Shown one piece after another: positions 3,978 through 6,504 of a stretch of DNA of 64,000 nucleotides (within the stretch, counting starts at the first letter, position 1; each line of letters begins with the position of its first letter). The notes under the pieces are model-generated. The model did no database searches. It saw only the letters and a list, made by a program, of their open reading frames with translations, and was not told the origin of the DNA. Source of the DNA: Candidatus Vogelbacteria bacterium (GTDB taxonomy: Bacteria > Patescibacteriota > Minisyncoccia > Phycocordibacterales > XYD1-FULL-46-19); NCBI GenBank assembly GCA_903864935.1, contig CAIPHT010000015.1, positions 6,618-70,617 of the forward strand, written 5' to 3'. The position numbers and the translations under genes were made by a program.

Positions 3978-4558
3978 ATTTTGATTACCTCTTATATGTA
4001 TTTTATGACTTCTTGGCGACCTTGTGGCGAATGATTTTCGATCCTTCTTTGCGATCGGGTCTCTTTAGTTGGTTTGATTGGTTGTGGTGGGTTTGCCTTA
4101 TCGTCTCTTTGCCTCTTTTGGCTGGTCTCATTTATTTTGTTTATAGTTACGAACAGATTCTGAAGGAACAACGCGAGAGGGTCTATGGTAAGCCTGGTAA
4201 TATTGTGGAGGCAGTTAAAGAAGATTTGGTTGTCGCTCCACCGGTGCGCAATGAAGCTTGGGAAAGGGTAACGAAGTTAATTGGCTCAGATAATCCAAAT
4301 GATTGGAAGTTTGCTATTATTGAGGCTGATAAAATACTCGAAATGGTTGTTGATACTTTTGCTGTGCCAGGAGATAATATGGGAGACAAAATGAAGAATA
4401 TTGAGCGTGGCGATTTCCAAACTATTGATGAGGCTTGGCAAGCACACAAGATTCGTAATCGAATTGCTCACGAGAGTAATTATCACATTAGTCAAAGAGA
4501 GGCCCGAATGGCCATAGCCAATTTCGAAAAAGTTTTTCAGGAATTTGACTTTATCTAG
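3965..4558 (+). CDS. Hypothetical protein with N-terminal TM helices and a C-terminal HEPN-like (DUF4145-like) domain
   Basis: Hydrophobic N-terminus, then a C-terminal KIRNRIAHES that matches the Rx4H HEPN signature. This was recognised by eye only. Confidence 0.35.
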   Translation: MPGLNFDYLLYVFYDFLATLWRMIFDPSLRSGLFSWFDWLWWVCLIVSLPLLAGLIYFVYSYEQILKEQRERVYGKPGNIVEAVKEDLVVAPPVRNEAWERVTKLIGSDNPNDWKFAIIEADKILEMVVDTFAVPGDNMGDKMKNIERGDFQTIDEAWQAHKIRNRIAHESNYHISQREARMAIANFEKVFQEFDFI

Positions 4559-4577
4559 CTTGATAGTATAATTAGAG

Positions 4578-4648
4578 AGCGGGGTAGAGTAATGGTAATT
4601 CGTAAGGCTCATAACCTTGAGACGCCGGTCCGAATCCGGCCCCCGCAA
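4578..4648 (+). tRNA. tRNA-Met (anticodon CAU), initiator-like
   Basis: Hand-folded cloverleaf with anticodon loop CUCAUAA and T-loop TCCGAAT. The A1·A72 mismatch and A11:U24 pair are features of initiator tRNAs. CC is encoded after discriminator A. Confidence 0.55.
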
Positions 4649-4657
4649 CCGCGTAAA

Positions 4658-4695
4658 GAAAAAGACAAGTTGAAAAACTTGTCTTTTTCGGTTAA
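4658..4695 (+). terminator. Hairpin (aagacaagtt-gaaa-aacttgtctt) plus a T-tract, lying between two tRNA genes
   Basis: 10-bp stem followed by tttcgg. Confidence 0.5.
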
Positions 4696-4707
4696 GATGT
4701 ACCCATT

Positions 4708-4784
4708 GTCGGCGTAGCTCAGTTGGTTAGAGCGTGGGACTCATAAGCCCAAGGTCGGAGGTTCGATTCCTCCCGCCGACACCA
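4708..4784 (+). tRNA. tRNA-Met (CAU), with G1-C72, so elongator Met or possibly tRNA-Ile2. CCA is encoded.
   Basis: Cloverleaf gtcggcg...cgccgac-A-CCA with anticodon loop CUCAUAA and T-loop TTCGATT. Confidence 0.8.
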
Positions 4785-4868
4785 CGTAAAGTCTTACTTT
4801 AGCGTGACCACGTGGCATAGCCCCTTTGATTTGATAATCTTGGGAGATTATGTCAAAATAGGACGTCT

Positions 4869-4943
4869 GCGGTCGTAGCTCAATTTGGTTAGAGCATCCG
4901 CCTGTCACGCGGAAGGTTGCCGGTTCAAGTCCGGTCGACCGCG
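4869..4943 (+). tRNA. tRNA-Asp (GUC)
   Basis: Acceptor gcggtcg/cgaccgc, anticodon loop CUGUCAC, T-loop TTCAAGT. Confidence 0.85.
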
Positions 4944-4973
4944 CAGAATAAGTTCTTTAAAATAGAAATACAT

Positions 4974-5046
4974 GCCGTTGTAGCTCAGTTGGTAGAGCAC
5001 GTCATTGGTAATGACGAGGTCGACAGTTCAATCCTGTCCAACGGCT
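4974..5046 (+). tRNA. tRNA-Thr (GGU)
   Basis: Acceptor gccgttg/caacggc, anticodon loop TTGGTAA, T-loop TTCAATC. Confidence 0.85.
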
Positions 5047-5076
5047 CCGAGCAATAAAAGGTGACCATCTCAAAAT

Positions 5077-5105
5077 TTGACACTGGTCTACGTGTTTTAT
5101 ATAAT
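5077..5105 (+). promoter_or_regulatory. Perfect consensus sigma70 promoter TTGACA-N17-TATAAT whose predicted start site coincides with the ATG of the HNH gene (leaderless)
   Basis: -35 at 5077-5082, a 17-nt spacer and -10 at 5100-5105. The ATG at 5112 lies 6 nt downstream of the -10. Confidence 0.5.
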
Positions 5106-5111
5106 TAAGAC

Positions 5112-5567
5112 ATGTTGAGACCGAAGATAGCTAACGATGGATGTTTGGTTTGTGGCAAAGAGAAAGCCCGGGCTAAGTATAAATATTGCAGTAATGCCTG
5201 CCAGATTGAATATCAGTATCAATCTTATATTAAGAGTTGGAAAGAAGGTAAAGAGAGTGGATTGCAAGGCTTAGGTATCGTCTCTGGTTATGTTAAGAGG
5301 TACTTAAGAATAAAATTCAAAAATAAATGTTGTCTATGTGGTTGGTCAAAAATTAATACGAAAATAGGATATTCTCCATTGGTTGCGGATCATATTGATG
5401 GAAATTGGCGAAATAACAAAGAGAGCAATCTTCGCTTAATTTGTCCAAATTGTGACTCGCTGACGTCAACGTATGCGGGATTAAATAGAGGGAAAGGAAG
5501 GGGTAATCGGGTTAGAAGCAAAAGGGCAACAGAGGGTCGTGGTTATGCTACAAATAAGCCGTCCTAG
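5112..5567 (+). CDS. Free-standing HNH (His-Me finger) endonuclease with an N-terminal Cys4 zinc finger, inserted in the tRNA array
   Basis: CLVCGKEK...CSNAC zinc finger followed by the HNH motif CCLCGW...ADHIDGNWRNN...NLRLICPNCD. The region is AT-rich and the 3' end overlaps tRNA-Thr(CGU) by 10 nt. Confidence 0.75.
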   Translation: MLRPKIANDGCLVCGKEKARAKYKYCSNACQIEYQYQSYIKSWKEGKESGLQGLGIVSGYVKRYLRIKFKNKCCLCGWSKINTKIGYSPLVADHIDGNWRNNKESNLRLICPNCDSLTSTYAGLNRGKGRGNRVRSKRATEGRGYATNKPS

Positions 5568-5630
5568 CTCAATTGGTAGAGCAATGGTATCGTAAACCAT
5601 AGGTTGTCGGTTCAATTCCGACGGACGGCT
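5558..5630 (+). tRNA. tRNA-Thr (CGU)
   Basis: Acceptor gccgtcc/ggacggc, anticodon stem atggt/accat with loop ATCGTAA, T-loop TTCAATT. There is no long variable arm, so it is not Tyr. Confidence 0.8.
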
Positions 5631-5634
5631 CAGT

Positions 5635-6504
5635 ATGGATGAAATCAAACAAAAAATAGAAGCGATAGAAGCAGAGATGCTCCAGCCGGATTTTTGGTCC
5701 AATAAAGATTTGGCCCAAGAAAAAATTAAAGAGCTGAATCAACTTAAAGAAGATTTAGCCGGGGTTAATAAATATGACAAGAGTGATGCCATTATCACTA
5801 TCTTTGCTGGAGCGGGGGGCGATGATGCGGAGGATTGGGCGCGTATGCTCTTCGAGATGTATTTTAAGTGGGCCGATAACCACAAGTTTGAGTTCGCTCT
5901 TATCCACCAGAATATGAATGATCGCAATGGTTATCGCAATGTCACCTTCGAACTTCGTGGTAAAGGTGTTTATGGTTTGCTTAAGAACGAATCGGGCGTG
6001 CATCGCTTGGTGCGCATCTCTCCTTTTAACGCCAAGAGCTTGCGTCACACCTCTTTTGCTTTGGTTGAAGTTATCCCGCGCTTTGAGAAGATGGGAGAGA
6101 TTAAGATCCCCGATGACGACCTGAAGATTGAGTTTGCGCGTTCCTCTGGTCCGGGCGGTCAGAATGTTAATAAACGAGAGACGGCGGTGCGTATTGTCCA
6201 TTTGTCAACAAACATCGCTGTCCATGTTGATTCAGAACGGTCCCAGCTCCAGAATCGAGAGAAGGCGATGGCGATTTTGGCCGGCAAGCTCTACAAGAAA
6301 GCGGAGGAAGATCGGCAAAAAGCGGAGAAGGGTATGTATGTGAGTAAGACGACCGAGATCGAGTGGGGTAGTCAGATTCGCTCTTATGTCTTGCATCCTT
6401 ATAAAATGGTTAAGGATCACCGAACAGAAATAGAGACTAGTGATGTGGAGGCGGTCTTGTCTGGGGATTTAGATGTTTTCCTTGAAGCCGAAAAAGGTTT
6501 ATAA
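5635..6504 (+). CDS. prfB: Peptide chain release factor 2 (compact N-terminus, no programmed frameshift)
   Basis: SPF tripeptide (RISPFNAKS), the GGQ motif (SGPGGQNVNK), and a start immediately after the tRNA. Confidence 0.85.
   Translation: MDEIKQKIEAIEAEMLQPDFWSNKDLAQEKIKELNQLKEDLAGVNKYDKSDAIITIFAGAGGDDAEDWARMLFEMYFKWADNHKFEFALIHQNMNDRNGYRNVTFELRGKGVYGLLKNESGVHRLVRISPFNAKSLRHTSFALVEVIPRFEKMGEIKIPDDDLKIEFARSSGPGGQNVNKRETAVRIVHLSTNIAVHVDSERSQLQNREKAMAILAGKLYKKAEEDRQKAEKGMYVSKTTEIEWGSQIRSYVLHPYKMVKDHRTEIETSDVEAVLSGDLDVFLEAEKGL

Follow-up and report, generated by a model that had tools for sequence, protein, structure and literature searches.

In phages, free-standing homing endonuclease genes have been studied thoroughly; to our knowledge they have seldom been documented moving between cellular chromosomes. 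SegB of phage T4, a free-standing homing endonuclease encoded within a tRNA cluster, recognises a conserved element of tRNA genes and spreads both itself and the adjacent tRNA genes (PMC2330249). Its authors proposed that tRNA maturation severs the stop codon of the mRNA from the last sense codon and so lowers expression, and clipping of the end of the nuclease mRNA by tRNA processing has been proposed for the T5 enzymes as well (PMC2330249). In the tRNA arrays of mycobacteria, plasmids and mycobacteriophages, no protein-coding genes are more widespread than those for HNH homing-type endonucleases, which have been implicated in diversification of the tRNA repertoire (PMC5966550). Our literature search found no description of an HNH family of Patescibacteria or of tRNA-Thr.

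Does a cellular counterpart of the phage elements exist? The window analysed here is a stretch of 64,000 nt from a Candidatus Vogelbacteria bacterium (contig CAIPHT010000015.1, positions 6,618 to 70,617 of the forward strand); positions given without a locus number are those of the window, and L numbers designate comparison loci. We consider it probable, from sequence comparisons, that positions 5049-5557 constitute a free-standing homing-endonuclease cassette, composed of a promoter and the gene for a 151-aa zinc-ribbon/HNH nuclease, at the 5' boundary of tRNA-Thr(CGU). The best-supported interpretation is that the cassette represents, in a cell, the type of element familiar from phage tRNA clusters, such as T4 SegB and the T5 heg genes. 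The features of the locus are as follows.

4974-5048, + strand: tRNA-Thr(GGU) (ARAGORN, Rfam), left flank of the insertion
5049-5557, + strand: inserted cassette of about 0.5 kb, comprising the inverted repeat, the promoter and the HNH ORF up to the tRNA boundary
5063-5088, + strand: inverted repeat GACCA-N16-TGGTC around the -35 box, a possible operator
5077-5105, + strand: sigma-70 promoter TTGACA-17-TATAAT, 12/12 match
5112-5567, + strand: HNH endonuclease ORF, 151 aa
5142-5201, + strand: zinc ribbon, residues 11-30 of the HNH ORF
5328-5456, + strand: HNH core, residues 73-115 of the HNH ORF
5558-5631, + strand: tRNA-Thr(CGU) (ARAGORN; Rfam tRNA, 68.5 bits)
5635-6504, + strand: prfB, encoding release factor 2 (RF2), 289 aa, the host gene of the right flank

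Anatomy of the cassette and its expression signals

The tRNA genes on the + strand follow the order Met, Met, Asp, Thr(GGU), Thr(CGU), and the HNH ORF lies between the last two, just where the first-pass annotation had placed a 151-aa zinc-finger/HNH gene. That annotation had also located the stop codon inside the downstream tRNA, and correctly so: the ORF overlaps tRNA-Thr(CGU) by 10 nt, its TAG (5565-5567) occupies positions 8-10 of the tRNA, and the first 10 nt of the tRNA gene encode the last residues of the ORF and the stop. prfB starts 4 nt past the tRNA, a junction found also in L219. No terminator-like site was found between 5105 and 6664, and prfB is probably co-transcribed with the HNH gene.

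Pfam places members of the PseudoU_synth_2, GatC and Amidase families upstream (by family, an rRNA/tRNA pseudouridine synthase and gatC/gatA), and prfB is followed downstream by ftsE. Both flanks consist of cellular housekeeping genes rather than a phage genome, and the immediate flanks, covering about 4 kb upstream and prfB/ftsE downstream, showed neither an integrase nor any other gene of phage type. The HNH ORF stands alone, being intergenic and lying in neither an intron nor an intein. The first-pass annotation had proposed a look for an intron in nearby tRNA or rRNA genes; in 4300-5900, Rfam reports tRNAs only, with no intron RNA or other RNA family.

The segment had been described as AT-rich and its composition as fitting an insertion. 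GC content is indeed lower in the HNH ORF, 38.8% against 44.7 +/- 4.5% for the ORFs of the window, but the departure is only mild (z = -1.3, rank 7 of 56). Across genomes, the GC of the HNH gene falls below that of neighbouring prfB in 40 of 42. GC3 averages 37% in the HNH gene and 52% in prfB, and since the two values track each other across genomes (r = 0.68), the HNH gene appears to have become partly adapted to the base composition of each host.

The promoter is made up of TTGACA (5077-5082), a 17-nt spacer and TATAAT (5100-5105), with 6 nt separating the -10 box from the ATG. Transcription usually starts 7 nt after the -10 box; the predicted start is therefore the A of the ATG (5112) and the mRNA would be leaderless, in agreement with the earlier annotation. 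In the Patescibacteria clade described below, a TAnnnT box ends 5-9 nt (mode 6) before the start codon in 61 of 65 members, and inspection found no Shine-Dalgarno motif in clade members. What does not hold is the idea that a leaderless consensus promoter is a special trait of this gene. The window contains four perfect (12/12) TTGACA-N16-18-TATAAT promoters against 0.05 expected; just 3 of its 60 long ORFs have a Shine-Dalgarno-like motif, and in 12 of the 60 a strong -10 box lies 5-8 nt upstream of the ATG, among them ftsE (6513) and the next gene (7199). The leaderless layout is ordinary for the source genome.

Each of the four upstream tRNAs (4545-4974) has its own promoter-like site, whose -10 box ends 5-10 nt before the tRNA 5' end (-10 end/tRNA start: 4572/4578, 4698/4708, 4859/4869 and 4963/4974), so the tRNA leaders would be only 0-4 nt long. 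prfB of the window is one continuous ORF, about 70 aa shorter at its N-terminus than the 357-aa RF2 of L009, and the 5' end of its mRNA may arise by tRNA 3' processing.

The inverted repeat GACCA-N16-TGGTC is the sole such match in the window. About 20 clade members carry a repeat of the form (A)CGACCA(C)-N14-17-(G)TGGTCG(T), or CAACCA..TGGTTG, at the same place; its arms covary (CGACCA/TGGTCG vs CAACCA/TGGTTG), and it lies inside the horizontally transferred tract discussed below. From this pattern we suggest, with low confidence, that the repeat around the -35 box is an operator. Mimicry of a tRNA D-arm/anticodon stem was considered and rejected, the arms not tracking the local tRNA by inspection. 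An internal tRNA promoter at the 3' end of the ORF (TATGCT, 5544-5549) is plausible and too poorly conserved to claim.

The zinc ribbon and HNH core of the protein

The protein begins with a zinc ribbon, CxxC-x11-CxxxC (C11, C14, C26 and C30), for which NCBIfam gives a faint YacG-like match. The HNH core that follows has the pattern CC-x-C ... DH ... N ... N ... CPNC-D, represented by C73/C74/C76, D93-H94, N102, N106, N113 and C111-P-N-C114-D115. The residues DH...N...N and two CxxC pairs never vary within the clade, the core residues as a whole are invariant or nearly so, and an alignment of 23 clade proteins contains 56 invariant columns. The final His of the H-N-H motif is Asp in 69 of 69 clade members. 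The Pfam models HNH_3 and HNH score below their cut-offs; PHROG HNH families reach 1e-16, one of them spanning residues 11-128, and the PADLOC 'homing endonuclease' model reaches 1e-9. In the AlphaFold model (pLDDT 72), strands 91-94 and 107-110 and helix 112-115 form a beta-beta-alpha core. Foldseek against the PDB returned HNH matches that are all weak (TagI, Cap5, endonuclease VII and I-HmuI; all E > 0.1) and therefore allow no finer structural classification, and a PDB sequence search with the 151-aa protein gave nothing meaningful. Motifs and model together identify a predicted HNH (His-Me finger) core with the catalytic His/Asn and the zinc-binding Cys pairs. Nicking would be a plausible activity because there is a single HNH domain.

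To which type of HNH nuclease does this core belong? McrA-like proteins join an N-terminal domain that binds modified DNA to a C-terminal HNH domain in about 280 aa. We rejected an McrA-like or type IV restriction assignment: only the short zinc ribbon precedes the core in this protein of 151 aa, and neither Pfam nor NCBIfam detects a modified-DNA-binding domain in it. IscB/OMEGA RNA-guided nucleases are characterised by RuvC and PLMP domains and an associated guide RNA. This assignment was rejected as well, with guided_IscB scoring 16.6 bits against a cut-off of 175 (NCBIfam) over the HNH part only; it is further countered by the shortness of the protein and by the lack of an RNA family nearby. 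The kinship with homing endonucleases foreseen by the first-pass annotation is borne out, the nearest families being phage HNH/homing endonucleases and not McrA-like proteins.

Site fidelity, empty sites and transfer among relatives

A protein search returned 1980 clusters (about 2000 homologues), more than a chance ORF would have. The best 120 of the 1980 share 67-100% identity with the window protein and have lengths of 146-171 aa; all named ones are from Patescibacteria. The Patescibacteria proteins form a tight clade (56-81% identity) that a library clustered at 50% identity reduces to one representative, while the surrounding superfamily consists mostly of longer proteins (482 clusters at E < 1e-30, 3991 at E < 1e-10). 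The exact protein of the window also occurs on several ENA metagenome contigs at the same junction.

Species-representative genomes yielded at least 585 confirmed relatives, and 80 loci were kept. In 77 of these 80, a tRNA-Thr gene lies downstream on the same strand within 166 nt. Its anticodon is CGU in Patescibacteria and in one Chloroflexia MAG and UGU in Oscillatoriales cyanobacteria and more divergent members. The window's exact 10-nt overlap recurs in the same frame in 27 of the 80, and in 12 further loci the ORF runs 1-38 nt into the tRNA; the overlap is a frame-conserved junction of the whole family and no oddity of the window locus. prfB follows in 44 of the kept loci and ftsE in 29, and the upstream neighbour varies. 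The gene is intact in 77 of the 80, and degenerate copies carry a stop codon (L043), a frameshift (L055) or an in-frame deletion (L071). At the ORFs of L017, L038 and L064, a stray tRNA 5' fragment stands before a different, complete tRNA-Thr. Two loci (L005, 2860-3474; L056, 2869-3465) carry the cassette on the other side, between tRNA-Thr(CGU) and prfB, where the ORF ends without overlapping a tRNA; this represents an alternative insertion side.

Among viral contigs we found at least 558 relatives and again kept 80 loci, 79 of which contain tRNA genes (up to 29 per 6 kb). The end of the ORF frequently abuts or overlaps a tRNA, Thr being the commonest and Lys, Arg, Ser, Met and Asp occurring also, and the 10-nt overlap recurs. 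Matches in cultured phages are mostly to Escherichia and Salmonella phages; in Klebsiella phage vB_Kpn_B01 (Demerecviridae), the homologue stands directly after tRNA-Thr. On one viral contig (L087, IMGVR_UViG_3300033121_001080), the 10-nt overlap of a relative with 59% identity falls on tRNA-Arg(CCU), which is immediately followed by a tRNA with a CUA anticodon, of amber suppressor type.

Because the family keeps to the 5' edge of tRNA-Thr both in phages and in three phyla, the likelier role of the tRNA, to judge from gene position, is that of target or anchor of the element rather than that of the 'safe haven' that the earlier annotation had seen in the tRNA cluster. Strict adjacency in Patescibacteria, the Chloroflexia MAG and cyanobacteria could also be explained by a dedicated partner of tRNA-Thr, acting in its processing, quality control or regulation. 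We regard this explanation as highly improbable, since the phage relatives also flank tRNAs for Lys, Arg, Ser, Met and Asp, every sequence affinity of the protein is with DNA endonucleases, and most relatives have the tRNA without the gene.

How many sites are empty? A sample of 80 related metagenome loci was anchored on prfB (RF2 46-79% identical), and 37 of them have tRNA-Thr(CGU) upstream together with enough further upstream sequence. Only 3 of these 37 contain the HNH gene; the remaining 34 are empty, with the tRNA intact and no detectable remnant of the gene. Both tRNA-Thr genes are present in 23 HNH-less loci; in 11 of these the gap between them is 1-30 nt, and the longer GGU-CGU spacers contain unrelated small ORFs and no HNH remnants. 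The closest HNH-less relative among the prfB loci, L219 (RF2 79% identical), has a tRNA-Thr(GGU) 100% identical to that of the window over 74 nt, followed by an unrelated 85-nt spacer, a tRNA-Thr(CGU) of 74% identity and prfB with the same start. The empty arrangement is common in relatives, and positions 5049-5557 of the window (509 nt) are therefore an insertion relative to it. With these empty sites, the phage HNH kin and the transfer among relatives described below, the original suggestion of a homing-endonuclease-like selfish insertion gains support. The tRNA is intact in occupied alleles, and when these were compared with empty alleles, the 5' region of the tRNA showed no convincing 'immunity' substitutions (the higher frequency of G4 in occupied alleles is confounded by lineage); this counts against the homing reading.

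Two further observations concern the neighbouring tRNAs. Among 37 loci with both genes, divergence is faster at tRNA-Thr(CGU) than at the tRNA-Thr(GGU) next to it: in 15 genome pairs with GGU at least 95% identical, CGU averages 74.6% (range 64-87.5%). This could reflect repeated replacement at the nuclease site or weaker constraint on a minor tRNA. In L004, which among HNH-bearing relatives is the closest, tRNA-Thr(GGU) is reduced upstream of the cassette to its 3' half, from the anticodon loop onwards (2860-2916), which indicates further rearrangement beside the element.

Transfer was assessed by synonymous sites, taken as third positions of fourfold codon families at identical residues, and by blocks of nucleotide identity; these replaced correlation of distances over the whole set. 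That correlation gave Mantel r = 0.79 for RF2 with FtsE, 0.21 for HNH with RF2 and -0.05 for HNH with FtsE, and is low-powered for HNH because the protein is short and its identity range narrow (sd 5%, near sampling noise). Between L022 and L037, fourfold sites are 84% identical in the HNH gene vs 34% in prfB and 38% in ftsE; for L016, synonymous-site identity is 64-69% in the HNH gene vs 22-32% in the flanking genes. Nucleotide identity between L022 and L037 is 86-96% exactly over the ORF and about 40% upstream and from the end of the ORF, the tRNA bodies being different. The left edge of the high-identity tract lies about 45-70 nt upstream of the ATG, depending on the pair, and its right edge is the end of the ORF. 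L016 and L022 form a mosaic, 94-98% identical in the first 200 nt and 64-76% thereafter. Judged by these sites and identity blocks, exactly the HNH ORF has been transferred, horizontally and recently, between distant lineages of other Patescibacteria (L016, L022 and L037).

Did the nuclease play a part in this movement, or were the gene and its tRNA-Thr merely cargo of a phage or integrative element recombining at the tRNA? Among the matches listed, the closest relatives outside Patescibacteria (58-59% identity) are viral contigs on which the gene lies beside tRNA-Thr or tRNA-Arg with the same overlap. The rapid turnover of tRNA-Thr(CGU) relative to GGU would also suit joint arrival, both in the pairs with near-identical GGU and between the window and L219. 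We nonetheless consider it very unlikely that the nuclease took no part in its own spread. Housekeeping genes occupy both flanks and the immediate flanks show no integrase or phage gene, the transferred tract stops at the 5' edge of tRNAs whose bodies still differ, and the similarities of HNH and tRNA are uncorrelated (Mantel r = -0.02).

The copy in the window has no disruption and retains all the invariant residues. Compared with its nearest relatives it shows saturation at synonymous sites (34-43%), and it is as similar to L004 (81%) as RF2 is (81-83%), with no sign of recent transfer. On these two grounds it may have been long resident in its lineage, a history that fits vertical descent there. 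The lack of such a sign counts against the homing reading, as do the replacement of the final His by Asp throughout the clade and the stronger conservation of HNH than of RF2 in 93% of pairs, with which a host-level function is possible. Has a nuclease of homing origin then been domesticated and kept for its benefit to the cell, for example in defence against phages that carry tRNA arrays, in recombination/repair or as a strong promoter for tRNA-Thr(CGU)/prfB? Mean identities of 66-67% for HNH vs 56-57% for RF2, the invariant alignment columns, the high proportion of intact copies, an Asp substitution both clade-specific and invariant, and a promoter that probably reads into the tRNA and prfB are all consistent with domestication. 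It is an unlikely outcome all the same: the gene is missing from nearly all relatives that keep the tRNA-prfB arrangement, the ORF alone has recently been transferred, and conservation is equally expected of an element that needs its activity to spread.

A proposed cycle and its comparison with known systems

How might a homing cassette at this site spread, and how might its expression be restrained? We propose that the nuclease would recognise the DNA of a cassette-free tRNA-Thr gene and nick or cut it near the 5' end. Repair from a cassette-bearing copy, acquired via transformation or phage, would then copy the cassette into place before the tRNA. Transcription from the ATG would produce a leaderless mRNA continuing through the tRNA and prfB, and two controls may bear on its expression. 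When RNase P matures the tRNA 5' end, the stop codon, which lies inside the tRNA, would be cut away and a stop-less mRNA left, keeping nuclease output low as suggested for T4 SegB. The second control may be the inverted repeat around the -35 box, acting as an operator.

A further reading, which takes up the invariant H-N-D motif and the conservation exceeding that of RF2, sees in the protein of the Patescibacteria clade more than a parasite: a chromosomal nuclease recognising tRNA-Thr DNA, which would attack incoming DNA of phages or other foreign origin bearing tRNA-Thr or drive repeated replacement of the tRNA-Thr(CGU) locus, its expression gated by RNase P clipping the stop codon from the leaderless mRNA. 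We think this distinctly unlikely; a link of such a nuclease to the tRNA-within-tRNA locus of L017, described next, is a possibility.

Nested tRNA genes were observed at two loci (L194, 1762-1944; L017, 603-787), where the D-loop of a tRNA-Thr(CGU) is interrupted by an insert of about 110 nt. The insert consists of a GC-rich inverted repeat, CCTGCCCGCCATCGCC ... GGCAGGCGGGG, around a second complete tRNA-Thr(CGU). ARAGORN calls the inner tRNA only, and RNAfold folds the outer tRNA into a cloverleaf from which the inner one projects on a stem of 12-13 bp (-77 and -83.5 kcal/mol; z = -5.6 and -4.5). Degenerate forms occur in L211 (1890-2010) and L189 (1160-1290). The outer tRNA of L017 is overlapped by an HNH ORF, and L194 is without HNH. 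The arrangement could be split-tRNA-like or a tiny mobile element. An 11-mer of the repeat in the viral locus L141 was dismissed as a chance match because there is no tRNA structure there.

As a homing cassette, the element has uses beyond its own locus. The Patescibacteria that carry the family are uncultivated, reduced and host-dependent, and a family at the 5' edge of tRNA-Thr provides a natural tracer of DNA exchange and homologous recombination across their distant lineages. It also supplies a small candidate enzyme, 151 aa long, whose target is probably a tRNA gene, and a clean case for asking whether tRNA 5' processing limits expression when the stop codon sits in the tRNA. For annotation, proteins labelled 'hypothetical protein' or generically 'HNH endonuclease' gain a specific identity.

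How does the cassette compare with the described systems? The T5 heg genes (F-Tfl enzymes), like the window gene, are free-standing HNH ORFs interspersed among tRNA genes. The ORFs of hegC, hegD and T5.069 run 14-24 nt into the following tRNA at its 5' end; for the window ORF the figure is 10. The core of T5 hegA (T5.075), …EH.DGN..NN..NL.LLCPNCHALTPTHAGKN, shares 55% identity over 40 aa with the window protein (E = 1e-11), the similarity being confined to the catalytic core. The heg products differ in being phage proteins of 170-227 aa with extra DNA-binding modules and the canonical final His, and they have no fixed tRNA-Thr partner. I-HmuI, a nicking HNH homing endonuclease, resembles the window protein in its single HNH domain, although the Foldseek match is not significant (E > 0.1) and its class is intron-encoded, whereas Rfam finds no intron at the window locus. 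I-TevI represses its own synthesis through an operator overlapping its promoter, and the inverted repeat of the window, if it is an operator, would parallel this autorepression. The mycobacterial-type HNH genes are likened to the window gene by their setting among tRNA genes; they reside in large mobile tRNA arrays, and the window gene lies at a single housekeeping tRNA beside prfB. T4 SegB, finally, is a GIY-YIG enzyme and is not homologous to the window protein; it acts between co-infecting phages, while the window cassette belongs to cellular chromosomes.
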